Made by a program: the position numbers and the translations under genes. Below, piece after piece: positions 5,442-51,071 of a DNA stretch of 64,000 nucleotides. The stretch comes from Candidatus Bilamarchaeum sp. (lineage in GTDB: Archaea > Micrarchaeota > Micrarchaeia > Anstonellales > Bilamarchaeaceae): contig DATIFM010000036.1 of the NCBI GenBank assembly GCA_035455205.1, forward strand, positions 12,152 through 76,151. The letters are read 5' to 3'. The notes beneath the pieces are model-generated. The model was not told the DNA's origin. It searched no databases and saw only the letters and a program-made list of their open reading frames with translations. Within the stretch, counting starts at the first letter, position 1. Each line of letters opens with the position of its first letter.

Positions 5442-6659
5442 ATGCGCAATGCGATACTCGCCCTCCTGATAATAGGCATCTGCAGCGCCGGCTACGAGGC
5501 GGCATACGATTCCAACCTCTCGGCAGTGATGGTCAAGGTCTACGGCCAGATGGACATAAACGGCTCGTACGAAGATTTCCTCTCGAGGCACACCCTCGTC
5601 GTGCTCGGAAGCGACATGGACCTCGGCGAGAGGGCTCTCCTCGAGACCGTGAGGGCCGAGAACGGCTGGTTCTCGAAAGCGAGGCAGAGCAACGACAGCA
5701 ACGGCACGCTCCCGGGCATTGAGGCAGGGGACTATTCGCTCGTGGTGCTCATCGGAGGCCCGGCCCAGAACAACATAACGAAAGTCGCGAACAAAAGCGC
5801 GTGGTTCAACGAGACCTACAAGGTCGAAGGCGGATTCTTCGTCGAGACCGGCAGGCTCGGGAACACGCTAGTGCTTTCAATCTCAAGCAGGAAGGGGTAC
5901 GACGAGAGGCCCAACGCAGGGGTAGCATTGTCGCCCCTCAACGCATTCATGCCCAAGGAGTTCGTTCCCCTCGCGGCAACCGGAATCTCCGTCTTCGCCC
6001 TTGCGATTATCAGCCTCGTGAGGACCGTCTTCGAGTTCAAGGCCCTCGACATAGGGCGCAAGGGGAAGAAAGTCGGTGAGGGGGCGGCGTATTATCGGGG
6101 CATCAACCTGACCGAGGCCGGGGCGGTCGTCGGCGCGTCAGTTATCCTCGGCGTGTCGATAAGCTGGCAGTATTTCGGAACCGACTTTTTGAAGTGGATA
6201 GCGATAAACAGCATCATCTGCCTATTTGCGGCCATAATGCACGAGCTGACCCACCGCGCTTTCGCATACGCGTTCAAGCTGAAGATAGAATACCGGTTCT
6301 GGCCGGCAGGCTCGGTGCTGACCCTCATCAGCTCGTACCTCGGGAACGCATTCTCGATTCAGGGGTTCCTGCTCGAGGACATAGAGCCGGACGTGCCCCG
6401 CTGGAAGGTAGGGCTGATGAAGCTTTCCGCGCCGCTTGTCAGCACGGCCATCATGGTTATTTTCGCATTGCTCAACTACGAGTCGCCCTCTCTGATCTAC
6501 CAGACCATCTACTCGACGAGCGGCCTGTGGGCGATGGCCGAGATACTCCCGTTCGGGGGATTGGATGGCAAGGACATAAAGGACTGGAGCCACACGGTGT
6601 GGTTTTTGGCCTTTACAGTCATAAGCGGCTGCTACGTGGCCGTCACGTTCCTGCTCTGA
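5442..6659 (+). CDS. polytopic membrane metalloprotease, site-2-protease (M50)-like, with an N-terminal extracytoplasmic domain
   Basis: HELTH (HExxH) lies in a hydrophobic segment, followed later by AEILPFGGLDGKD (the LDG motif of S2P-type enzymes). Signal/TM at the N-terminus, then about 170 aa carrying NxS/T sequons, then multiple TMs. Confidence 0.5.
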   Translation: MRNAILALLIIGICSAGYEAAYDSNLSAVMVKVYGQMDINGSYEDFLSRHTLVVLGSDMDLGERALLETVRAENGWFSKARQSNDSNGTLPGIEAGDYSLVVLIGGPAQNNITKVANKSAWFNETYKVEGGFFVETGRLGNTLVLSISSRKGYDERPNAGVALSPLNAFMPKEFVPLAATGISVFALAIISLVRTVFEFKALDIGRKGKKVGEGAAYYRGINLTEAGAVVGASVILGVSISWQYFGTDFLKWIAINSIICLFAAIMHELTHRAFAYAFKLKIEYRFWPAGSVLTLISSYLGNAFSIQGFLLEDIEPDVPRWKVGLMKLSAPLVSTAIMVIFALLNYESPSLIYQTIYSTSGLWAMAEILPFGGLDGKDIKDWSHTVWFLAFTVISGCYVAVTFLL

Positions 6660-6688
6660 TTTTAAATCCGGGCGGCGAATTTTCCCTA

Positions 6689-6985
6689 ATGAAGGCACTT
6701 TTGGTTTTCGCGCTCATCGCCGCGGCCGCTTTCGCCGAGCAGGGCCCCGAGGACCAGATGGACGGGTGCCTGAAAGGATGCTGCATGGATGCCGGCGGCG
6801 CGTGGGATGGGGCGGACAACATTTGCGACATCAATGAGACGGCGCGGGAATCCGGGCCGCTCTCCAAGTGCCAGCTGAACTGCGTCTACTCCACGACGGG
6901 AGTGGAGGCGAAGGGCCCGGGGTGCTGCGCGCCCGCGATGATGCTCATCGCGCTTGCCGGGGCGGCCCTATGGGTGAGAAAGTGA
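6689..6985 (+). CDS. small Cys-rich secreted protein with C-terminal TM anchor
   Basis: Taken from the ATG at 6689 inside the 263-aa track ORF. MKALLVFALIAAAAFAEQG is the signal peptide. The 98-aa product has 10 Cys and ends PAMMLIALAGAALWVRK. Confidence 0.5.
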   Translation: MKALLVFALIAAAAFAEQGPEDQMDGCLKGCCMDAGGAWDGADNICDINETARESGPLSKCQLNCVYSTTGVEAKGPGCCAPAMMLIALAGAALWVRK

Positions 6986-7674
6986 GCCGGATAGCGGCAG
7001 AGCTTGCCAGATACGCCGACCCGGAGAAGGCGAGGGTGCTTTCGGGCTTCTTCAAGACAGGCAAGGGGGAGTACGGGGAGGGGGACGTCTTCATCGGGGT
7101 AAAGGTTCCCGAATCCCGCAGGGTCGCGAGGATGTTCAGGGACGCCGACTTAGCCGCGGTGAAGCAGCTCCTCGGGAGCGAAATCCACGAGCACAGGCTC
7201 ACGGGCTTCCTCATCCTCGTCGACAAGTTCAACGCCGGCGATGAGCGCGCGAAGCGCGCCATCTACGCATTCTACATGGAGAACAGGGGGAGGGCGAACA
7301 ACTGGGACCTCGTGGACTTGAGCGCGGACAAAATCGTCGGCGAATACCTCCTCGAGCGGGACAAGGATGTCCTTTACCGGTTCGCGAAGTCTGAAGACGT
7401 CTGGGAACGGAGGATAGCGATAGTTTCAACATTCGCTTTCATAAAAAAGGGCAGGTTCGGCGACACTCTCAAAATAGCGGAAATGCTCCTTCGGGACAAA
7501 CACGACCTGATACACAAGGCCGCGGGCTGGATGCTGAGGGAGGTCGGCAAGCGGGGCGGGCTTGGCAAGGAGAAGAAATTTTTGGATAAATACTGCCGTA
7601 AAATGCCCCGGACCATGCTGAGGTATGCCATCGAGAGGTTCCCTGAGCGCGAGAGGAAAAAATACCTCGGCTAG
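6970..7674 (+). CDS. DNA alkylation repair enzyme (AlkD-like HEAT-repeat, PF08713-like)
   Basis: From MGEKVSRIAAELARYADPEKARVLSGFFKTGKGEYGEGDVFIGVKVPESRRVA...HEHRL..., which matches my recollection of the DNA_alkylation family. Confidence 0.7.
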   Translation: MGEKVSRIAAELARYADPEKARVLSGFFKTGKGEYGEGDVFIGVKVPESRRVARMFRDADLAAVKQLLGSEIHEHRLTGFLILVDKFNAGDERAKRAIYAFYMENRGRANNWDLVDLSADKIVGEYLLERDKDVLYRFAKSEDVWERRIAIVSTFAFIKKGRFGDTLKIAEMLLRDKHDLIHKAAGWMLREVGKRGGLGKEKKFLDKYCRKMPRTMLRYAIERFPERERKKYLG

Positions 7675-8528
7675 AAGAGGCGCTCCACTCGCTCGATGCA
7701 GTTCGAGAGGGCGTCGGCGAACTCGCCTGCGGACTGGTATCGCCTCGCCGGGTCCCGCGCAAGGGCGCGCATCACGGCATAGGACAGCGCAGGCTCGATT
7801 CCCGGAGCCGCGCGCGAAAGAGGAATGGGGTCCATCGTGCGGTGGGCGTGCATTATCCCCTCGTCGTTCGAGGGCCCGGTCGCATAGGGCGTGCTGCCCG
7901 AAAGATACATGTACGCAATCACTCCCAGCGAGAATATGTCGGCCCTTGCGTCAATCTTCGTGCCCGGGACTGTCTGCTCGGGGGCCATGAAGTCCGGCCG
8001 CCCCACGTGGCGGTCTGCGCCCAGGTCGGGCAGGCCCGGGACGTATGCGACGCCGAAATCGAGCACGCTGAGCATCTTCCTGTCCTGGCGCATCACGAGG
8101 TTAGCCGGGCATATGTCGCGGTGTATTATCCCCTGCCGGTGGGCCTCTGCGAGGGTTTGGCAGGCCGAGATTGTGAGCCTTACGACGCATGCCTCGCGCT
8201 CGTCGAGAATGTTATTGAGGTTGTAGCGAATCCCGCTCACGTATTCCATAGCGAGGTACGGCTCGTCCCCTTCGAGCGCGAAGCTTATCAATGAGGGAAT
8301 GCCGGGATGTTTCAGGCTCGAGAGCGCGGCGGCCTCTACGGCGAGGCTTGCCATTGTGCGCGGATTGGCCGGGTCCTTCGGACGCTTGAGGGCGGCCTTC
8401 TGCCTGAGGCTGATGTCGGCGGCGAGCTGGACCACGAAAGCCCCCTCGTTGCCGAGAATACGGCCAGGCCTGAAGCGGCCACCGACGGTAGCGACTAGGT
8501 CGGGGTGCGCTTTCATGGCCTGGCTCAT
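7671..8528 (-). CDS. Hanks-type Ser/Thr protein kinase, kinase domain only
   Basis: Gly-loop GNEGAF, AALK lysine, HRDICPANL catalytic loop, DFG and APE motifs are all present in order. 285 aa. Confidence 0.85.
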   Translation of the reverse strand: MSQAMKAHPDLVATVGGRFRPGRILGNEGAFVVQLAADISLRQKAALKRPKDPANPRTMASLAVEAAALSSLKHPGIPSLISFALEGDEPYLAMEYVSGIRYNLNNILDEREACVVRLTISACQTLAEAHRQGIIHRDICPANLVMRQDRKMLSVLDFGVAYVPGLPDLGADRHVGRPDFMAPEQTVPGTKIDARADIFSLGVIAYMYLSGSTPYATGPSNDEGIMHAHRTMDPIPLSRAAPGIEPALSYAVMRALARDPARRYQSAGEFADALSNCIERVERLF

Positions 8529-39784: not shown

Positions 39785-41179
39785 GTGGCTGCCCACATCC
39801 CGGGATGCAGAAACAATATATTCGCCACATCTGCTTCCTGCACGGGGGATTGCGTGCTTGGCTGGAGGGTGGTCGGGGGCGGCGAGTACACGCTCGACAT
39901 GCCGCGCCTGAGCGCGGAGGAGGAGGGCCTGATATGCGTGGCCGAGGAGCGTTTCAGGGAGGCCGCAAGGGGCGGGGCCATCGAGAGCGAGAAGCTGATA
40001 ACGCAGCTCGTTTCCGGCGCTGCAGCAGAGGGGGGAATTTACCTGAGCCGGGCCCAGGAATCCTATCTTGCCCGGATGGCGCACATGCACATCTATGGCT
40101 TCTGGTTCATGGACGAGCTTTTATCTGACCCGGGGATAGAGGAGATAAGCGTCATCGGCCCGGGCAAGCCGGTCTACGTCTATGCGAGGAAAGGGGGCTG
40201 GCTCAGGGTGAACGCGGTTTTCGAAGACGAGCGCGCGATAGGCGAGCTCATCAACAGGATGGCCGCGAAGCTCGGGCGCAGGATAACGATGCAGAACCCG
40301 CGCCTCGATGCGATGCTGCCGGACGGCTCCCGCCTGCATGCCTCGCTCCCTCCGGTCTCGGCCGGGGAGATAACAATCCGGCGCTTCAGGCAGAGCCCCC
40401 TGTCGCCTGCCGAGCTCGTCGCGAACAAAACCGCCGGGGCCGAAGCGCTCGCCTTCCTTTCCGTTTTGATGCAGTGCGACAGCTCGGTGCTCATCGCGGG
40501 AAACACGGCAAGCGGGAAGACGAGCACCCTCAATGCGCTATTCTCATTCGTGCCCTCGAACGAGCGGGTGATAATCACCGAGGAGACGCCGGAGATAACG
40601 ATACCGCACCAGCACCAGATGCGGCTCGTTGCCAACCGCGACATGGGAATCTCGCTCAAGGACCTCGTGTACGATACATTGAGGATGAGGCCGGACAGGA
40701 TGATCGTGGGGGAGGTCAGGAACCGCGAGGAGAGCGAGGCTCTCTTCGACGTGCTCCTTGCCGGGCAGGCGAGGGGATGCTATGCAACGTTCCACGCGCA
40801 GAGCGCACAGGAAGCGCTGGGCAGGCTCCGCTCCTTCGGAATCAGGGGCGAGGACCTTTCCAGCATTGACTGCATAGTGGTGCAGAGGAGGATGCTTTCG
40901 TACGACCCGAAAAAACGGGCGGGCACGGAAGTGAGGAAAATAGTGGAGATAGCCGGGGTGGCGGGGGGGGATACGCATGCGATATTCCCGGGGCAGGGGG
41001 CAATGAAAAGCGAGTTGTTCAGGCGATCTGCCGAAAGTTTCGGCCTGAGCGCGAAGGAGATGGGGGAGGAGCTCGGCGCGAGGGCGGGGATGATCGCCCG
41101 GGCGGGCCCTGGATTCCCGGAATTCTTCAAAGAGGTGCAGAAAAAGCTCTACGGGCTGGGTGGCGCGGATGCTTTATGA
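39785..41179 (+). CDS. type II/IV secretion-family ATPase (archaeal type-IV-pilus/archaellum assembly ATPase, FlaI/VirB11-like)
   Basis: Walker A GNTASGKTSTLNAL, ITEETPEI, RMRPDRMIVGEVRNREESEALF and His-box ATFHA. The true start may lie up to about 30 codons downstream of the track start. Confidence 0.85.
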   Translation: MAAHIPGCRNNIFATSASCTGDCVLGWRVVGGGEYTLDMPRLSAEEEGLICVAEERFREAARGGAIESEKLITQLVSGAAAEGGIYLSRAQESYLARMAHMHIYGFWFMDELLSDPGIEEISVIGPGKPVYVYARKGGWLRVNAVFEDERAIGELINRMAAKLGRRITMQNPRLDAMLPDGSRLHASLPPVSAGEITIRRFRQSPLSPAELVANKTAGAEALAFLSVLMQCDSSVLIAGNTASGKTSTLNALFSFVPSNERVIITEETPEITIPHQHQMRLVANRDMGISLKDLVYDTLRMRPDRMIVGEVRNREESEALFDVLLAGQARGCYATFHAQSAQEALGRLRSFGIRGEDLSSIDCIVVQRRMLSYDPKKRAGTEVRKIVEIAGVAGGDTHAIFPGQGAMKSELFRRSAESFGLSAKEMGEELGARAGMIARAGPGFPEFFKEVQKKLYGLGGADAL

Positions 41180-42704
41180 GATGTGCAGGCTTTTCCCGCC
41201 GCTTCCCGTGCGCTTTCCCGAAAGCAAAAGGCTGGCCCTCCTTGGAATCGAGCCGCAGAGGTATGCAGCGATGGCCCTCGCCCTTTCGCTCGCGGCGTTC
41301 ATCGCCGCGCTCGCGTTCTCGAAATCCGCGCTCTTTGCGGCCGCGGCGGCGGCGGGCGCCGCCGCAATCGTCATCGTGCTCCCGAAACTGGAAATGGCGA
41401 GGCGCGCCGCGGACATCGAGTCGGAGCTCCCCCTCTTTTTGCGCAGCCTCGGGATGCTCATGGAGTTCGGGATGCCGTTCCAGCGCGCGCTCGAGTGCGC
41501 GGCGCGGGGATGCGGCGCGCTCGAGGAGGAAATCGGGAGGTGCTGCCTCGAGATGAGGCGCGGAATGGCGGCGCAAAAGGCGCTTTCCATGCTCGCCCTG
41601 GGCTACGACTCGATGGCGCTCAAGAGGGCCGTTTCAGCGCTCGCCATCTCTTTCGAGAGCGGAGCGGGGGGAGCGGAAATCCGGAAAATCGGAGACGACA
41701 TGCTCTCCCTCGAGCGCTTCAGGCTGAGGGAGTACGCCTCGAAAAGCGCTATTTTCGGCCTCGTCCTCATCGTAACGGGCGCTATCCTCCCGACATTCTT
41801 CCTGGTCTATTTTGTTGCGGGGCCTTCCTCCGGACTGGGAGATGCGGAGATGCGCATCGCGATGCTCGTCGTCTTCCCGATGTGCAGCCTCCTCGCGATT
41901 CTCCTTTCGCGCTCGATGATGCCGAGGATGGTTTTCGGGAACTCCGGTCTGAGCCTTCTTTCGATGGCGCCGGGGGCGATAGTAGTCGCAGGCGATTTGC
42001 TCATGCCGAAGTTCCAGCTTGCTTTCCTCGCCGCGGGCGTGGGCGCCGGGGCATACGCATTATACAGGACGTTCGCCGCCGAGAGCAGGCTCGAGGACAT
42101 CGAGCGCAGGCTGCCCGACGCGCTGTTTTCGGCCGGGGGCATGCCGAAATCGTCATCGGCCGAGCGCCTTTTCAGGATGATTGCCGAGGGCGGATTCGGG
42201 GCTCTTTCTGCCGAGGCGGCAAAGTCGCTCAGGCAGATAAGTGCGAACGTCCCGCCCCCCGCCGCCCTCGAGGACCTCTGGCAGAGGAACCGCTCCCCGA
42301 TGCTCCGGAGGGCGTGCATGATGCTCCGGAGCATGATGGACACGAACTCGCTCGACCGCATCGGGATGCTCGCGGACGACATGATAAAGAGCGCCCAGCT
42401 GAAGAGGGAGCGGGCCTCTGTTTTCTCGATGCAGAAATACACGCTGCTCGCGGGCGCACTCTTCATCCCGCTCATCCTGAAGATGGCGCTCTCCCTGCTT
42501 TCAGGGATGGGAGACCTGCTCGGCGGGGGAGCGGCGGCGAAAATCGCTTCTGCCGGCGCGATTGCGCCGGCTTACCTGGTCGCCTATTCGGTCATCTCCT
42601 CGGCCGCCATAGGCGATTACGAGGGGAAGAAGTCGGCGGCGGTGATATACCTTGCGGCAATGGGGATAATCAGCCTGCTTGCGTTCCGCTTTATAAGTTT
42701 TTGA
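41160..42704 (+). CDS. type-IV-pilus/archaellum platform membrane protein (FlaJ/TadC, T2SS-F-like)
   Basis: 514 aa polytopic protein with two cytoplasmic helical domains separated by TM clusters. Overlaps the ATPase gene end. Family assignment rests on architecture and synteny rather than on a sharp motif. Confidence 0.6.
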   Translation: MARMLYEMCRLFPPLPVRFPESKRLALLGIEPQRYAAMALALSLAAFIAALAFSKSALFAAAAAAGAAAIVIVLPKLEMARRAADIESELPLFLRSLGMLMEFGMPFQRALECAARGCGALEEEIGRCCLEMRRGMAAQKALSMLALGYDSMALKRAVSALAISFESGAGGAEIRKIGDDMLSLERFRLREYASKSAIFGLVLIVTGAILPTFFLVYFVAGPSSGLGDAEMRIAMLVVFPMCSLLAILLSRSMMPRMVFGNSGLSLLSMAPGAIVVAGDLLMPKFQLAFLAAGVGAGAYALYRTFAAESRLEDIERRLPDALFSAGGMPKSSSAERLFRMIAEGGFGALSAEAAKSLRQISANVPPPAALEDLWQRNRSPMLRRACMMLRSMMDTNSLDRIGMLADDMIKSAQLKRERASVFSMQKYTLLAGALFIPLILKMALSLLSGMGDLLGGGAAAKIASAGAIAPAYLVAYSVISSAAIGDYEGKKSAAVIYLAAMGIISLLAFRFISF

Positions 42705-42719
42705 AGAGAGTAACCTGCG

Positions 42720-43190
42720 ATGGACAGCATCACATCGGCAGCGCTCTCGGTTGACAACCCGCTCCTGCGGGCCGCCGGGGAGTTCCTGGACAACCCCCTG
42801 GTTTTCAGCGCGCTCATCCTTGCCGCGCTCCTCATCGGCGAAAGCAGGATGGAGAAGAGGAAGAAGGCGCTCCTATCCATCCTGCTTGCAGTCCTGTGCG
42901 GCTACGCGCTCAAGTTCGCGCTGGCCGTAGAGAGGCCCTGCGCCGGGGAGAGCTGGTGCCCGTCCGATTTCTCGTTCCCGAGCCTCCATGCGACCGCGGC
43001 CTTCAGCCTGATGATAGGGTTCCTGAACAAGAAGTCCTTTCCCTTCTACCTCCTGTTCGCGCTTTTCATAGGCTTCACGAGGATGAACATCGGAGTGCAC
43101 GTATTTGCCGACATAGCGGCCGCGCTCCCGATAGCGATAGTGGCATATTACGCCATAGACCTGGGTGAAAAAAATGGAAAAGGAGACTGA
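42720..43190 (+). CDS. PAP2-family lipid phosphatase (polyprenyl-diphosphate phosphatase candidate)
   Basis: KFALAVERP, FPSLHA and TRMNIGVHVFAD correspond to the three PAP2 motifs (KxxxxxxRP, PSGH, SRxxxxxHxxxD). Confidence 0.75.
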   Translation: MDSITSAALSVDNPLLRAAGEFLDNPLVFSALILAALLIGESRMEKRKKALLSILLAVLCGYALKFALAVERPCAGESWCPSDFSFPSLHATAAFSLMIGFLNKKSFPFYLLFALFIGFTRMNIGVHVFADIAAALPIAIVAYYAIDLGEKNGKGD

Positions 43191-43722
43191 GCGCCAGCTC
43201 TTCCACATGCTGATAGGGTGCTGCACGATTGCGGCGCTTTTCGTGCTCGGCAGGGGATTTGCCATCGCCGCGGTCTTCTTCACGATAATAATCGGCCTCG
43301 TCCTGATGAACAGGCGGCTACTCGGGCAGAGGATTCCGCTCGTAACCTGGTTCGAGGAGAAGTTCGAGCGCGAAAACGCCCGCCTCCCGGGATGGGGCTC
43401 TGCCTGCTACGCGGCAGGGGTGCTCGTCGCCCTCACGTTCCTCGCAGAGCCTTCGCGCATAGCGGCGGTCATATTCATACTCGGAATCGGCGACGGCGTT
43501 TCAACCATCGCAGGGAGGCTCGGTAAAGTGAAACTCCCTCACAACCCGTCAAAGACGCTCGAGGGCTCGATAGCCTTCGTCGCGGCGTCGCTCCCTGCGT
43601 ATTTCCTCATCGGCCCCCTCGTACTCCCGGCGGCTCTCGTGGGCGCGATTGCCGAGAGCCTGCCCCTCGAGGACAACCTGACGATACCAATCGCGTGCAC
43701 CGCGCTCCTGCTCATCCTGTGA
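43165..43722 (+). CDS. CTP-dependent polyprenol (dolichol) kinase / CdsA-family membrane protein
   Basis: Polytopic, with GIGDGVSTIAGRLGK...KTLEGSIAF typical of the CTP_transf_1/dolichol kinase family. Confidence 0.6.
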   Translation: MKKMEKETERQLFHMLIGCCTIAALFVLGRGFAIAAVFFTIIIGLVLMNRRLLGQRIPLVTWFEEKFERENARLPGWGSACYAAGVLVALTFLAEPSRIAAVIFILGIGDGVSTIAGRLGKVKLPHNPSKTLEGSIAFVAASLPAYFLIGPLVLPAALVGAIAESLPLEDNLTIPIACTALLLIL

Positions 43723-45630: not shown

Positions 45631-45652
45631 AAGCAACCGGACGCATTTTACC

Positions 45653-45671
45653 GCCAACCCGAAGGGTTGGC
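45653..45671. terminator. conserved GC hairpin, copy 3 (GCCAACCC-GAA-GGGTTGGC) between convergent genes
   Basis: Perfect 8-bp stem with a 3-nt loop, followed by AAAC. Lies in the 44-nt gap between the stops at 45630 (+) and 45675 (-). Confidence 0.5.
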
Positions 45672-45674
45672 AAA

Positions 45675-46943
45675 CTAGCTGAGCCAGAAGTTGAAGAACG
45701 CGAGGAACAGGACGAGGGCGATGAGGCCGAAGCCTATCGTCACCTGCGTGAGCGTCTCCTTCTCGAACGCGCTGCTCGGCCTCGTGAAATTGCCGGCCGG
45801 CAGGCCGTCCTCGGTAAACTGCCCGTCATGGGAAAGCGCCCTGCTCGTGACGCTCTCGTTGAACCCGGATTCGTTCATGAAGCTGTCGGTTACGCGCAGC
45901 GAAAAATTATTCAGGCCGAGCCCGGAATAGCTGTAGTTGATTCCGTAGGCGTAAAGGAACGAGTCGTTGCCGTGCTCGAGGGGAATCGGGGTCGTGACAT
46001 TGGAGTCGGATTCGGAATATCCGGTTTCGTTCGTCAGGTTGGAGCGGATTTCCTGCACGCCGAAGGCGTTCTGGACCACCGAGAAGTTCCTCAGCGTGAT
46101 GTTCAGGGCGCGCTTGCCGTTCATGTCAAGCTCCGCGCGGTAGAGGGGGGCCTGCGAGAGCACCAGCATGTTGAAATCGTTGTTCCGGAACCACTGCTCT
46201 CGCAAAGCTGGCGACAGCAGGAAGAAGAGCTTGCCCTCCCCGGCGACGCGGTAGGAGCGGTTTATGGAAACCGGGATGGATGCATTAACTGTCGTGACGT
46301 TGTCCGGGCAGGTCGACTCTCCGGTCTGGTTGTTGATGGCGTACATGAACGTCACGTTGCCGGTCAGGTTGATGGTGAGGTTCTCGAGGCCGGAGGACGA
46401 TTTCATCTCTTGCAGGATTTCCTCCGGGACCGGGACGAGGGTGGCGTTTGCGCGGGCGGTTGAATTCAGGCCCCTGAAGGTGAACGTGGCGTTCAAATCA
46501 TAGACGACATACGTGCTGTTCTCGTATTCCGAGCAGAAGTCCCCGTCGAAGTCGCAGCGCCACGCGGTCTCGTCGCTTATGTGCTGGTGCCAGGCATCGT
46601 CGCAGACGAAATTCGGATATCCCTGCGCCGGCTTCGAAGTGAGGTGGCCCATCGAGTAGCCGCGGGCTATCAGGAGGGCGAGGCCTTCGACCGGGGCCGT
46701 GACATTGTCGATGAGGAGCGTCATCCCGGCGATATCGAGGCTCGCATTGACGTACTGGGTCTGGTTGTAGCCCCCGAAAAAGAAGGTGATGTTGCCGCTC
46801 GAGGCGTTGGTGGCGTTGTAGGTTCCGTTAAGGGACGACGAATAATTTTCGTTGTAGGCCATGACTCCGCTTATGGGAGGCTCGGAATACTGGGCGAAAC
46901 ATGCGGAACCGAGAACCATCAGGGCCAAAACCCAGAACTTCAT
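45675..46943 (-). CDS. secreted, heavily sequon-decorated surface protein with C-terminal TM anchor (S-layer/envelope glycoprotein candidate)
   Basis: Signal peptide MKFWVLALMVLGSACFAQ, about 30 NxS/T sequons by my manual count in 422 aa, and C-terminal TIGFGLIALVLFLAFFNFWLS. No family recognised. Confidence 0.6.
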   Translation of the reverse strand: MKFWVLALMVLGSACFAQYSEPPISGVMAYNENYSSSLNGTYNATNASSGNITFFFGGYNQTQYVNASLDIAGMTLLIDNVTAPVEGLALLIARGYSMGHLTSKPAQGYPNFVCDDAWHQHISDETAWRCDFDGDFCSEYENSTYVVYDLNATFTFRGLNSTARANATLVPVPEEILQEMKSSSGLENLTINLTGNVTFMYAINNQTGESTCPDNVTTVNASIPVSINRSYRVAGEGKLFFLLSPALREQWFRNNDFNMLVLSQAPLYRAELDMNGKRALNITLRNFSVVQNAFGVQEIRSNLTNETGYSESDSNVTTPIPLEHGNDSFLYAYGINYSYSGLGLNNFSLRVTDSFMNESGFNESVTSRALSHDGQFTEDGLPAGNFTRPSSAFEKETLTQVTIGFGLIALVLFLAFFNFWLS

Positions 46944-48850
46944 AGCATATCGCCCAGCCTGTCTATCGTCACAAACTGGACAGTGTCGTTGGCCTGCATC
47001 AGTTTCAGCCTCGCAGAGTCGGCCTGGCCGAGGTTGTCGAAGATGTGGTTGAGCTCGGACTTGTCGTCCACGACTATGATGGCCTTCCGCGTGAACTTGT
47101 CGCCGAAGAACCCGACCTCGAAGTCCTTGGACACGAACTTGGAGCCGGACTCGCTGAACATCGTCCCGCTCTCGATGAGTTTCTCCTTTATCATCCTGCG
47201 GAGGGTGTTGCGCTTTATGTCGCCTTCGCCCTTGAGCTGGTAGTAGTCGCGGTGCGACTCGAGGTGGCCGGACTTGACGAGCTTCTTGAGGATCTCCTCA
47301 ACGTTGCCCTCGGTGACGTCTGCCCCGTTCGTGAGGTAGCGCTTGAGCGAGACCGCGAACTCCTGGGCCGTTATCGGGTTGCTCCCGAGGTTCATCTCCT
47401 TGCGTATCATGGAGAAGCTCTCGAGCGCGCGTGCGAGGGGAAGCGTTATCTCCTGCCGCACCGAGTCCGCGCTGTCTCCGAAGCGGATGCGGTAGGTCGG
47501 CCTGCGGCTCGCCCTCGCGCCGAAATAAACGGCGGCCACGATAATCAGGCCGGGCACACCGTACTTGATGTAGAAGTCGAGGAACGGGTCCTCCTGGTTG
47601 ACGACCGTGACGGGAATCTTCGTTCCGGCAAGCTCGAAATTGAATATGTTCTCTCCTTTGTCCAATTTGGCGTTAACAGTGACCGTGCCGTCGCTGATGA
47701 AGTATTTCCTCTTGGTCTCCGAGTCTCCGAGGGACACGAGCGCCTCCGTGTTTCCCATGGGCGCCCCGTCGGCGAGGGCGGAGAACGTGTATGTCACGCC
47801 CCTCTTCTGGAGGAGCGTTATCTCGATGTCGCGTATGTGGAGCATGCCGCTTGCTATCGGGCCGGAGTTGTCGTCCACTGTGATTACGTACCAGCCCGGG
47901 TCGGGGTATTCGAATTTCTTCAGGAAAACGTTCTCGTCCGTGACGCGCCGGAGCTGCTCGTGCTCTATCGTCTTGCCGTCCTTCTTCACCGAGAGGAACG
48001 CCGTCCCGTTCGTCTTGTTCAGGAGGAACTGGAGGCTGGAGCGCTCGTTGGGGAGTATCGTCTGTGGAGAGGTCGCAAGCGTCTGGTTTGTCTGCTCGAG
48101 GCGCGGCGAGTCGAATATGCCTGCCGTATCGTCGAACTCGTACACGAGGCGCACGTAGCCGGTGCGGTTTATCCTGGCCGCTGCGGTGCCGATTCCGGCC
48201 CCGGATACGAAAATCTGCGAGCGCTCTCCTGCGGCCCAGCTGTTGAGGAGTATGTCGCGCGCGAGGCTTTTGTTGCCGCTGTCGATGAAGTCGTCGAGCG
48301 ATGTGTTTATGAGGACGACGCGCGAGCGCTGGGCCGGAGTGAGCGAGCTGTACCAGTTGAGCTGCTTTATGCCGTTGCTTATCAGGAGGTCCTTCGCGCC
48401 GAAATACACAATCGCCGAGTCCGAGGAGTTCTGCTGCAGGTTGAAGAGCGCGTACGATGGTATCGCGCCCGTGGGCACGATGTTTATCCCGTCGTTAATC
48501 TTCGGCTCGTCGCTGATTGTGACCGTGAAGCCGTATTTCTCGAGCACGCGCATCTGCTCGATGAGGTCCTGGAGCTTCGTTGCCTCTATCGCCTGGCTGT
48601 CGTTGATTATCGTCACTTTCCTCTTGGGCGGCTTTTCATAGCCCAGAATCGTGAGGTTGCCGGTCCCGCGGTAATTGTAGACGCTGTAAGCGTATTCGCC
48701 CGCCGCCCCGCTCTCGAGTACCGAGAATGTCGAGGGCGCATGGTCCTTGGCCATCCCCTCCTCCTCGCCGAAAAGCAGCACGACCACTATCCCGGCAAGT
48801 ATCAGGAGGAGAACGACCACAAGCCCCACGATGATGCTGCGCAACCTCAT
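46940..48850 (-). CDS. two-TM envelope protein: large extracytoplasmic domain plus a roughly 190-aa cytoplasmic C-terminal domain
   Basis: TM1 is IIVGLVVVLLLILAGIVVVLLF. About 420 aa with sequons follow, then TM2 YGVPGLIIVAAVYFGA, then a charged helical tail. ATGA overlaps at both ends. No family recognised. Confidence 0.6.
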   Translation of the reverse strand: MRLRSIIVGLVVVLLLILAGIVVVLLFGEEEGMAKDHAPSTFSVLESGAAGEYAYSVYNYRGTGNLTILGYEKPPKRKVTIINDSQAIEATKLQDLIEQMRVLEKYGFTVTISDEPKINDGINIVPTGAIPSYALFNLQQNSSDSAIVYFGAKDLLISNGIKQLNWYSSLTPAQRSRVVLINTSLDDFIDSGNKSLARDILLNSWAAGERSQIFVSGAGIGTAAARINRTGYVRLVYEFDDTAGIFDSPRLEQTNQTLATSPQTILPNERSSLQFLLNKTNGTAFLSVKKDGKTIEHEQLRRVTDENVFLKKFEYPDPGWYVITVDDNSGPIASGMLHIRDIEITLLQKRGVTYTFSALADGAPMGNTEALVSLGDSETKRKYFISDGTVTVNAKLDKGENIFNFELAGTKIPVTVVNQEDPFLDFYIKYGVPGLIIVAAVYFGARASRRPTYRIRFGDSADSVRQEITLPLARALESFSMIRKEMNLGSNPITAQEFAVSLKRYLTNGADVTEGNVEEILKKLVKSGHLESHRDYYQLKGEGDIKRNTLRRMIKEKLIESGTMFSESGSKFVSKDFEVGFFGDKFTRKAIIVVDDKSELNHIFDNLGQADSARLKLMQANDTVQFVTIDRLGDML

Positions 48851-50202
48851 ATGTCCAGCCTTTTTGAAGTAAGAAAGTCTACATCATTTTTATAGAAATC
48901 CCTTATGTCCTCGAGCTCCATGAGGAGCATAAGGGGGCGCTCCAGCGAAAGCCCCCAGGCGAGGACCGGGTAAACTCCGGCCAGGGGGAGGCTCACTTCG
49001 GGCCTGAATACCCCGGCACCGCCGAGTTCGAGCCATTGCTTCCTTTTTTCGAAGAACACCTCAATTTCGAGCGAAGGCTCGGTGTATGGGAAGAAGGACG
49101 GCCGGAACCGTATCTTCTCGAAGCCTAGCTTCTTGTAGAATTCCTTGAGGACGCCAAGGAGGTCTGTGAATTTCGCGTTTTCCCATGCAATGATGCCCTC
49201 CACCTGGTGGAACTCGGCAAGGTGCTTGTAGTCGGTGGCCTCGTTCCTGAAGACGCGGCCTATTGCGAAGTATTTCCGGGGCTTCCCGTCCTTGATCGAC
49301 GCGACGTAGCGGGCCGAGAGGGCGGTAGTGTGGGTGCGGAGTACCTGCCGCGAGGCTTCCTTGGGGTCCCACTTGTACTTCCAGCCGTCCTCGTGCGATT
49401 TTTTCACCTTCTCGACGAGAGACCGGTCGTTCGGGAGCGGCGACGTGCCGTCGATGTAGAACGTGTCCGCGAGCTCGCGGGCAGGGTGGTCCTGCGGCTG
49501 GAAGAGCGCGTCGAAGTTCCAGAACGAGCTCTCGATGATGTCGCCCTCCATCTCCTGGAAGCCCAGCTCGGACATTATCGACTTCATCTTCAAGGTCATC
49601 CTGGTTATCGGATGGCTTTTTCCCGAGGGGGCGTTCTTTGCCGGGACGTTCAGGTCGAATTGCGCAAGCTCGGCGCCGGCCGCCTTGGCAGTCCTGACTA
49701 CGGTCGTTTCCCTGACCGTCTTTTTGCCAAGGAGGCGCCTTTCGTAGAATTCTTCGAGAAGCACCTTGTCGGAGCATTCCCCGGAAGAGGCGATTTCATT
49801 GGCCGCGGCCTTTAGCGATTCGGCGAGCGCACCGACTTCGGATTCCTCCTTTTCCGGGACCAGCCTGCCCCCTTCGATATTGACGAGGCCCTTGACTTTT
49901 GCCCACCGGATGCCGATGGATTTTTCATCGGGCGTGAGGTCAGCTATGGAAGCGCCCGCGAGCGCTTTCTTATATACCAGGATTTCCGGGAAGCCGCTGC
50001 CGACGTATTTCGAGAGCTCCGGGGTCTGGATGCCCTTCACGGACTCCTTAAGCTCCAGCGTGACGTAGCCCGCGGTCTTGAGCGACTCGAGGATGCGCCG
50101 GATGCTGTCCTCGTTCATGCCGGCCTGCCTGCACAGCGCGTCGAATGCCATGCGCCTGTTTTTTGAAACGATTTCAAGAACCTTGTCTTCTCCCTTGTAC
50201 AT
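48847..50202 (-). CDS. pheS: phenylalanine--tRNA ligase alpha subunit, archaeal type
   Basis: Class II motifs: PARELADTFY, LRTHTTALSARY, FRPSFFPYTEPSLEIEV and ELGGAGVFRPEV. Start at MYKGEDKV (50202); the 38-aa track extension is rejected. Confidence 0.9.
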   Translation of the reverse strand: MYKGEDKVLEIVSKNRRMAFDALCRQAGMNEDSIRRILESLKTAGYVTLELKESVKGIQTPELSKYVGSGFPEILVYKKALAGASIADLTPDEKSIGIRWAKVKGLVNIEGGRLVPEKEESEVGALAESLKAAANEIASSGECSDKVLLEEFYERRLLGKKTVRETTVVRTAKAAGAELAQFDLNVPAKNAPSGKSHPITRMTLKMKSIMSELGFQEMEGDIIESSFWNFDALFQPQDHPARELADTFYIDGTSPLPNDRSLVEKVKKSHEDGWKYKWDPKEASRQVLRTHTTALSARYVASIKDGKPRKYFAIGRVFRNEATDYKHLAEFHQVEGIIAWENAKFTDLLGVLKEFYKKLGFEKIRFRPSFFPYTEPSLEIEVFFEKRKQWLELGGAGVFRPEVSLPLAGVYPVLAWGLSLERPLMLLMELEDIRDFYKNDVDFLTSKRLDI

Positions 50203-51029
50203 TACTCTTCGCCCCTCCGTTTTGCAGTTATGACATACAGGCAAGAGCCTATAAGCGCAGCGAGGAGGAGGACAAGAGGCAGTCCGCCCGGGCCGCGAAG
50301 GGTCTCGATGACCCATATCAGTATGCCGCTGAAGAAATCGGAAACCTCCTTGTCGATGCTGTCCTCGACCTCGAAAACGAGGGAGAACTTCACAAGGACG
50401 ATGTCAGACCATGAAAGCGAATCCGCGTGAACCGGCAGCTTGAGGGTTAAATCGGACGGCGCCGGGTTAACGTCCTGCACCACAGCCTCCGGGGGAAGCT
50501 CGACCGTCAGGAAGACGTTCTCGTCCAGGATGATGTTGCCCTCGGGGGTCGTCGTGAAGTACAGCGCCGAGGGGTTTATGGAATAGCGGATGGTGCGGGG
50601 CTTGTATTTTTCCAGCCTGAAGAGGCCGGTGCCCTGCGTCGCGACGCTGGAGTTGTTGAACGAGGGATATGCGAGGTAGTCGAGTATCAGTTCGCCGTGG
50701 CAGATGCCTTGTATCGGATTGCATTTTGTCCGCGGCTGGGGCCGCACGCGCAAATCGCGTATGTCGACGGTGGACGGGTTCACGTGGAACTTGACGTCCT
50801 TGAGGCCGACGTTGGACGACCACCAGGACAGCTCGTCGTTCCCGATGCCGCTGTCGTAGATGGAGTTCGAGTAGTTTCCGAACATCACGAACTTGATGCT
50901 TTCGTGCACCTTGGCGCTGCCATCGGACTTCACGTCGCTTATGTCCACGTCTACCCGCTCGATGAGGAATTCCGCGTTTGCCACTGCGGCGAGCACGAGT
51001 AAAAGTAGCAGTCGCTTCATGATTTCCAA
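50202..51029 (-). CDS. secreted protein with C-terminal TM anchor and basic tail, unknown function
   Basis: Signal peptide MKRLLLLLVLAAVANA. C-terminus is GGLPLVLLLAALIGSCLYVITAKRRGEE. Its stop overlaps the pheS start by 1 nt (TAATG). Confidence 0.55.
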   Translation of the reverse strand: MEIMKRLLLLLVLAAVANAEFLIERVDVDISDVKSDGSAKVHESIKFVMFGNYSNSIYDSGIGNDELSWWSSNVGLKDVKFHVNPSTVDIRDLRVRPQPRTKCNPIQGICHGELILDYLAYPSFNNSSVATQGTGLFRLEKYKPRTIRYSINPSALYFTTTPEGNIILDENVFLTVELPPEAVVQDVNPAPSDLTLKLPVHADSLSWSDIVLVKFSLVFEVEDSIDKEVSDFFSGILIWVIETLRGPGGLPLVLLLAALIGSCLYVITAKRRGEE

Positions 51030-51071
51030 TCTCAGTCAAGGTATAAAAATGGATTTTCAGTCATTCACTGC

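Follow-up and report, generated by a model that had tools for sequence, protein, structure and literature searches.

A candidate glycosylated envelope complex specific to Micrarchaeota, encoded in a predicted operon together with pheS

Micrarchaeota, which live as obligate symbionts, have heavily reduced genomes, and we know of no described mechanism by which they attach to their hosts, anchor a surface layer (S-layer) or take up host material. In the Sulfolobales SlaA is anchored by SlaB. ToxR/CadC and the archaeal ArnR are membrane-tethered one-component regulators. The SPEARE-type giant proteins of nanohaloarchaea combine an immunoglobulin (Ig)-like ectodomain, a transmembrane (TM) segment and a cytoplasmic VirB4/TraG module (PMC10266531), and the DUF2207 protein SMU.243 influences how S. 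mutans tolerates stress and forms biofilms (PMC10457818). Here we analyse a 64,000-nt stretch of a Candidatus Bilamarchaeum genome (Micrarchaeota, DPANN), called the window below, in which the phenylalanyl-tRNA synthetase (PheRS) gene pheS lies among three genes, P1, P3 and P4, whose products belong to undescribed families. We propose, with a probability of about one half, that P1, P3 and P4 together form a glycosylated complex of the envelope that is peculiar to Micrarchaeota. It would act as a stalk or contact module at the cell surface and offer a handle in the cytoplasm, and pheS would be a passenger in its operon.

The genes follow one another in this order:
50202–51020, minus strand, P1, 272 aa counted from the ATG
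48847–50202, minus strand, pheS, phenylalanine–tRNA ligase alpha subunit, 451 aa
46940–48850, minus strand, P3, 636 aa
45675–46943, minus strand, P4, 422 aa

A preliminary description of this DNA had reported four minus-strand genes chained by overlaps of 1–4 nt, and all the open reading frames (ORFs) and junctions were found. The TAA stop of P1 and the ATG of pheS shared one nucleotide (TAATG, 50200–50204), and a TGA stop and an ATG overlapped by 4 nt (ATGA) both between pheS and P3 (48847–48850) and between P3 and P4 (46940–46943). The start of P1 had been placed at a TTG at 51029, giving 275 aa; the ATG at 51020 is the most likely start because the public gene call and all the homologues agree on it. 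A 489-aa pheS frame in the mechanical ORF list was an upstream extension of the 451-aa gene. P3 and P4 were identical to the NCBI proteins VLD37_07495 and VLD37_07490, respectively. Same-strand neighbours in related Micrarchaeota loci, the clusters themselves included, formed 109 pairs, of which 31 overlapped (28%) and 17 did so by −1 or −4. A lone overlap means little in these compact genomes, where overlaps are common; three in a row are uncommon.

None of the three proteins gave a match above threshold in Pfam, NCBIfam, PHROGs or PDB sequence searches, as expected from the preliminary description, which had recognised no family for them. That they might be paralogues of one another was rejected on hhalign probabilities of 0.3–9%, and no paralogues were found elsewhere in the 64-kb window. 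A viral or mobile origin was also rejected, as no P3 relatives were present in IMG/VR and no matches in PHROGs. The literature yielded nothing on the P1, P3 and P4 families or on CedB/VirB4 clusters in Micrarchaeota. Homologues of the operon proteins all came from Micrarchaeota, with the exception of one label: P0222, a P1 homologue with 62% identity on a 2.9-kb contig, is assigned to Candidatus Aenigmatarchaeota, probably through an error in binning or labelling, since all other named homologues are from Micrarchaeota.

The predicted topologies agreed with the signal or TM features and the large outer domains that had been noted for all three proteins. AlphaFold 2 (AF2) models covered P1 and P3, and that of P3 was confident (predicted local distance difference test score, pLDDT, of 84). 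The hydrophobic segments of P3 at 1–34 and 423–441 corresponded in the model to TM1 (2–27, N-terminus inside) and TM2 (423–448). Outside the cell the model placed a beta-sandwich (41–82), an alpha/beta domain (93–205), in which the motif PTGA.P is invariant, and Ig-like sandwiches (210–418); inside it placed a winged helix (472–540), a basic helix and a second alpha/beta domain (562–636). The winged-helix fold was present in the order H472–485, H495–505, H514–526, E530–533 and E536–539, with pLDDT of approximately 70–89. Basic residues flanked both TM segments on the predicted cytoplasmic side, and the isoelectric point (pI) of the cytoplasmic part was 8.8, compared to 5.0 for the ectodomain. 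Ten N-glycosylation sequons (NxS/T) were present where 4.4 were expected from composition shuffles, nine of the ten in the predicted ectodomain. No P-loop family matched the cytoplasmic domain. Foldseek searches with the full-length model returned generic tandem Ig, FN3 and macroglobulin folds (TMq 0.10–0.17) and no functional assignment. A Ribophorin-I or oligosaccharyltransferase (OST) accessory role, suggested by the similar topology, was rejected: Ribophorin_I matched 0 of 39 P3 family members and no OST was found among the top 50 Foldseek PDB matches.

P1 begins with a signal peptide (..ANA|EF) and ends with a TM segment at 243–268 and the tail KRRGEE. Between them lies a beta-sandwich ectodomain (AF2 pLDDT 70), in which a hairpin with two Cys, RPQPRT.CNPIQ..CHGE, was invariant; an amphipathic helix follows it before the TM segment. 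The first beta-strands matched DUF2207_N below threshold in 19 of 31 family members (best E 0.016), and a later segment matched DUF4897 in 9 of 31 (best E 0.008), with scores of 11.7–12.3 against a gathering threshold of 24.4 bits and of 12.9 against 28.6 bits, respectively; a weak precomputed DUF4897 match also exists for one distant P1. DUF2207 proteins are envelope proteins like P1 but are multi-pass. A Foldseek similarity of P1 to pentameric ligand-gated channels (TM-score 0.2–0.27, root-mean-square deviation 12–17 Å) was rejected as reflecting only a beta-sandwich plus helices. P4, for which Pfam, NCBIfam and PHROGs gave no match, starts with a signal peptide and ends with a TM segment at 396–422; its ectodomain contains conserved Cys and a conserved core (LREQWFRNN.F..VLSQ.PLY). 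It had been singled out as exceptionally rich in sequons and carries 30 of them, for 6.6 ± 2.3 in the shuffles.

The architecture of P3 resembles that of the SPEARE-type proteins in that it is also a protein of a DPANN symbiont with an extracellular Ig-like array, a TM segment and a cytoplasmic module, and in that genes for VirB4-family ATPases lie nearby, in the case of P3 only at distant paralogues (loci L040, L045 and L049, described below). P3 is 10-fold smaller, with approximately three Ig-like domains, and its cytoplasmic part is a winged helix with an alpha/beta domain instead of an ATPase. The likeness noted here is one of architecture, and P3 does not join the ectodomain and an ATPase in one polypeptide.

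The gene order was compared in 38 loci obtained by scanning one genome per species of the Genome Taxonomy Database. The order P1-PheS-P3-P4 was present in every locus that was long enough, the six incomplete ones stopping at contig ends, and recurred in divergent lineages. The overlap of −1 between P1 and PheS was found in 29 of 37 relatives, and that of −4 between PheS and P3 in 18 of 20 in which it was measurable. The identities to the window proteins were as follows:
P1: 54–73%, median 64%
PheS: 41–76%, median 67%
P3: 33–64%, median 54%
P4: 30–49%, median 42%

The tail was the best-conserved part of P3: its columns averaged 70% identity, those of the complete protein 61%. Both this tail and P1 thus appear to evolve at housekeeping rates, P1 at a rate like that of the synthetase. 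The flanking genes purP, TRAM and dtdA were also syntenic in these 38 loci; synteny among close relatives therefore says little alone, and the argument rests on the divergent loci.

A P3 profile was searched against 1.84 billion representative sequences and retrieved 276 relatives at E ≤ 1e-3 (representatives of clusters at 50% identity). The core common to all 276 comprised the last Ig domains, TM2 and the winged helix; the broad alignments were too divergent for pattern scans. Four gene contexts were distinguished. The first, P1-PheS-P3(-P4) with unrelated flanks, occurred in L042, L044, L047 and L048, in which PheS was only 48–50% identical to that of the window. Ankyrin-repeat coding lay between pheS and P3 in L042 (two genes, 6441–7896) and just after the P4-like gene in L047 (9117–9794); ankyrin repeats are unusual in archaea, and these proteins could be host-interaction factors. 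In the second context, in L043 and L046, PheS was absent and its slot between P1 and P3 was filled by a small protein with two TM segments, a 137-aa Zn-ribbon protein in L043 and a 176-aa protein in L046, with a P4-like gene following P3. The third, CysS-P3-like-P4-like, was seen in nine loci of an Anstonellaceae-like clade (L050:2214–6986, L051:6613–11131, L055–L062), within a conserved block YdjM-x137-x136-CysS-P3-P4-RTC-DUF92, with ATGA overlap(s) in L051.

In the fourth context, P3-like proteins of 706–1002 aa were encoded within ATPase gene clusters (L040:4202–10556, L045:343–14263, L049:1425–11510). These clusters also encode multi-TM proteins, a split N-terminal coiled-coil protein with two TM segments, an ATPase, small Zn-ribbon/TM proteins and cytoplasmic winged-helix/coiled-coil proteins; L045 adds a 983-aa CedD/TraD-like protein. 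The best matches of the ATPases were CedB, CedD and VirB4-like proteins, at 60–76 bits for cut-offs of 325–700. In L049, a 961-aa P4 relative was located directly downstream of the P3-like gene (P4 hidden Markov model, E = 2e-14), and P4 relatives were found downstream of P3 in L043, L046 and L047 as well. In a rough neighbour-joining tree, linkage to CysS was confined to one clade and linkage to ATPases to two, and the copies linked to PheS were spread over several deep branches. Across these contexts the conserved unit appears to be the P3-P4 pair, usually accompanied by P1.

The clusters of L040, L045 and L049 look like an undescribed apparatus related to type IV secretion systems (T4SS) or to the Ced system. 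The neighbours of the P3/P4 paralogues are CedB/CedD/VirB4-like ATPases and small membrane or Zn-ribbon proteins, and the upstream coiled-coil protein with two TM segments weakly matches the N-terminus of CedB. No CedA/VirB6 channel and no VirB2/CedA1 pilin were matched among the window proteins or the multi-TM proteins of the paralogue clusters. A tblastn search of three Micrarchaeota CedB/VirB4-like ATPases against the 64 kb of the window gave only noise.

Transcription signals were considered at both ends of the gene set and within it:
51042–51049, minus strand, TATA box TTTTTATA, 22–29 nt before the P1 ATG
48887–48895, minus strand, candidate internal promoter TATAAAAAT, within the 3' end of pheS, 37–45 nt before the P3 ATG
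45651–45673, strand unassigned, hairpin with a 10-bp GC-rich stem directly after the P4 stop

Of 24 related loci, 23 carried the motif TTTATATA at −29 to −22 of the P1 start, among them loci from genomes of 55–61% GC. TTTTTATA is therefore predicted to be a conserved archaeal TATA box and the promoter of an operon mRNA that is leaderless or has a short leader. It sits in a 51-nt divergent intergenic region in common with the MarC gene. No conserved TATA box preceded pheS, P3 or P4 in the related loci compared. The hairpin falls between P4 and the convergent TRAM gene, which are 44 nt apart, and probably marks the end of the transcription unit; the z-score of the whole fragment was only −1.3, and the stem was called mainly from reading the sequence directly. 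Since a TATA box is conserved before P1 only, and given the hairpin after P4, we infer that P1, pheS, P3 and P4 look like one operon.

TATAAAAAT consists of three rare A/T-ending codons (TAT-AAA-AAT; p approximately 0.009 from codon usage, with a third-position GC content of approximately 0.8), and is a possible internal promoter specific to the window. An A/T octamer was found at this site in 3 of 20 loci with at least 50% GC (L001, which is the window's own contig, L033 and L008). A conserved internal P3-P4 promoter was rejected, as most high-GC relatives lacked TATAAAAAT. In the last pheS codons (..ARLDI), AAGGTTGGA (48850–48865, minus strand, 5–13 nt before the P3 ATG) was kept in many relatives, under constraint on the protein, on the RNA or on both. 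This string might also act as the ribosome-binding site in a coupled re-initiation.

We propose the following model. P1, P3 and P4, which are unrelated and inherited together, would be membrane glycoproteins produced from one operon and would most likely assemble into one envelope complex. P3 would be its spine, with its N-terminus inside, an alpha/beta domain and an Ig-like stalk outside, and TM2 leading back to the cytoplasm, where the winged-helix and alpha/beta tail would serve as a handle for a cytoplasmic partner. The densely N-glycosylated P4 and the slowly evolving beta-sandwich of P1 would be its partners on the outside, each anchored by its C-terminus. In this way the complex would link the cell surface, either the S-layer or the surface of the host, to the cell interior. 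In the CedB/VirB4-like clusters the P3/P4 paralogues would be the only large extracellular parts. These paralogues and the nanohaloarchaeal precedent (PMC10266531) suggest that proteins of this family build those parts of cell-contact or transfer machines which lie outside the cell and cross the membrane. In the window we would then have a constitutively expressed version without ATPase: the absence of an ATPase, the conserved strong promoter and the slow evolution fit a constitutive envelope role, for instance as a surface stalk or as an anchor for the S-layer or host contact. The lineage-specific surface module suggested in the preliminary description is thus reasonable, the choice between an S-layer or anchor role and a cell-contact role staying, like the physical complex itself, inferential.

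Three undescribed families are thereby delimited which are phylum-wide, co-inherited, preceded by a strong conserved promoter and in part as slow to evolve as a synthetase. As a trio they are a tangible candidate for a core complex of the envelope or of cell contact, one member of which reaches the cytoplasm. Their paralogues are tied into CedB/VirB4-like ATPase clusters that seem also to be undescribed in Micrarchaeota, and the locus shows clearly how an essential gene can become locked into an operon to which it is unrelated.

Several points weigh against this proposal. Foldseek assigned no function to the models, with P3 generic and P1 meaningless. The window contains no VirB4-like ATPase, so that the analogy with the ATPase clusters is indirect, and the paralogues in these clusters are only 17–25% identical. 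A host-contact adhesin would not usually evolve as slowly as P1 and the P3 tail do, and a housekeeping envelope role fits better. In two clades P3 is directly preceded by an aminoacyl-tRNA synthetase (aaRS) gene, a different one in each, which exceeds what a pure passenger model would predict: with about 20 aaRS genes in about 1000, we estimate the chance at about 2% for each relocation behind an aaRS. Lastly, the Micrarchaeota S-layer protein is a different protein, of the PF05123 type and 101 kDa (bioRxiv 10.1101/2021.04.28.441871).

The position of pheS is the other part of the proposal. PheS matched PRK04172 with 436.2 bits (cut-off 350), TIGR00468 with 347.4 bits (cut-off 237) and the Pfam family tRNA-synt_2d (PF01409) at 9.8e-86; on these matches it is taken to be a genuine archaeal-type alpha subunit with an N-terminal winged-helix region. 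The envelope genes had been described as wrapped around pheS. PheS does not appear integral to the set, which lacks it in L043 and L046, and P3-P4 follow CysS in other loci. The strongest argument for joint action of P1, P3 and P4, with PheS as no component, is that different genes can fill the slot between P1 and P3. As PheS has no promoter of its own and overlaps both neighbours, a rearrangement would break an essential gene or orphan P3-P4, and this lock-in by the shared promoter and the overlaps would keep PheS in the operon. PheS is thus most likely a trapped passenger.

The usual partner pheT had been found missing beside pheS, correctly, and it did not appear among the further ORFs of the window that were checked (CTP synthase, FtsZ, flippase and similar). 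That this is an anomaly did not hold, the adjacency being lineage-dependent. In Ca. Micrarchaeum harzensis A_DKE, Micr_00413–00416 encode PheT, PheS, a 256-aa hypothetical protein and TRAM (PMC8975820, supplementary file 8). The 256-aa protein, Micr_00415, has a size like that of P1 and the same neighbour as P1, and judged by size and neighbour alone it may be a P1 relative.

Among the alternatives, the trio could form the membrane anchor, or stalk, of the Micrarchaeota S-layer, with a purely structural role and none in contact or transfer. Like SlaB, P1 and P4 are predicted to be Sec-exported, N-glycosylated and held by a C-terminal TM segment, and the housekeeping rates and constitutive promoter context would suit such a role. 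The anchor of the S-layer protein of Ca. M. harzensis, SLP_Mh, is unknown and a second TM protein is perhaps needed (bioRxiv 10.1101/2021.04.28.441871). We nevertheless regard this explanation as unlikely. There is no detectable homology to SlaB or SLP_Mh, and no S-layer family was found among the Pfam matches at E ≤ 1 of P1, P4, 31 P1 relatives and 39 P3 relatives. P3 crosses the membrane twice and carries a cytoplasmic winged-helix/alpha-beta tail, which S-layer stalks are not known to have and which an anchor would not obviously require. Paralogues are found in ATPase clusters, and Ca. M. harzensis, which bears an S-layer, has no P3/P4-type genes beside PheS (this comparison covering the pheS locus only).

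It is equally improbable that P3 is a membrane-tethered one-component regulator, with an extracellular sensor, P1 and P4 as co-receptors and a PadR-like winged helix acting on DNA. As in ToxR/CadC and ArnR, a short linker joins the predicted winged helix and the helix after it to the membrane, beyond which lies an extracellular domain. The winged helix is confidently predicted, the helix after the wing is strongly basic (pI 11), and some homologues are named "PadR family" by JGI. Weak matches to PadR, DUF5457, ANAPC2, HTH_34 and TrmB fell at approximately 497–548 of the tail in many members (DUF5457 in 27, ANAPC2 in 10 and PadR in 9 of the 39). All of them remained below threshold: the best DUF5457 match (E = 5.7e-4) did not reach the gathering score, and PadR matches were not significant, at best E = 0.02 and, for the PDB entry 7wjp, E = 0.52. 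The domain order is reversed with respect to ToxR/CadC, and the helix that occupies the recognition position (TEGNVEEILKKLVKS) is not basic but neutral to acidic (pI 5.9). Operator-like repeats did not come to light, though no search was aimed at them. The paralogues in the ATPase clusters adjoin a separate cytoplasmic winged-helix/coiled-coil protein, which suggests a use of these domains in protein–protein contacts.

A functional link to the synthetases seems more doubtful still. The cytoplasmic tail of P3 would dock or regulate PheRS here, and CysRS in the Anstonellaceae-like genomes, at the membrane, translational coupling setting the stoichiometry; as one variant, acquisition of amino acids or tRNA from the host might be coupled to charging. 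The aaRS genes found repeatedly upstream of P3 are a testable oddity. P3 overlaps pheS by ATGA in 18 of the 20 measurable relatives and cysS in L051, CysS-P3-P4 is kept in the nine loci, and the pairing of PheS with P3 survives down to 48–50% PheS identity. The tail, moreover, is the best-conserved part of P3, and shows a faint likeness to the B5 region of PheRS-beta (P. horikoshii 2cxi). This last similarity was rejected as not significant (E = 0.48 with the whole profile, 0.063 with the tail profile), and the Pfam family B5 was not among the matches of the 39 members. The module exists without any aaRS in L043 and L046 and with ATPases instead in L040, L045 and L049, two genes part PheS from P3 in L042, and PheRS-alpha (class II) and CysRS (class I) have no common surface. 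Very improbable, in our view, is a stronger proposal in which P3-P4, with P1, form the ATPase-independent core of a Micrarchaeota-specific envelope-spanning conduit, akin to those of the CedB/VirB4-like clusters, at the contact with a Thermoplasmatales host, and in which the coupling of P3 to aaRS genes is functional, the winged-helix tail recruiting charging enzymes or tRNA to the entry site of host amino acids or nucleic acids.

Least probable of all is the absence of any functional module, with unrelated neighbours held together by block synteny and DPANN genome compaction. In its favour, the 38 close relatives also conserve purP, TRAM and dtdA, overlaps affect 28% of the same-strand pairs, and the overlap chain of L051 runs on from the P4-like gene into the unrelated RTC and DUF92. 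Against it, the arrangement P1-x-P3-P4 is kept in L043, L044, L046, L047 and L048 despite entirely different flanks, the P3-P4 pair is kept in four types of context, and all three proteins share a compartment and a glycosylation signature.

Downstream of the operon the window encodes the TRAM protein, an Mrp/NBP35 ATPase and DtdA, and upstream MarC and PurP. Scans for tRNA genes and Rfam families in the window were empty. The preliminary description had drawn attention to pilus and glycan genes near the set; such genes were indeed present, with sugar-nucleotide genes at 35.6–39.7 kb and a T2SSE-type pilus ATPase at 39785–41179, but the proximity was not conserved in distant relatives. A 185-aa protein encoded after a PAP2 phosphatase (43165–43722, plus strand) had no Pfam or NCBIfam match. 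The same was true of a 523-aa protein encoded directly after the T2SSE-type ATPase (41183–42754, plus strand), which may be a divergent pilus platform protein.

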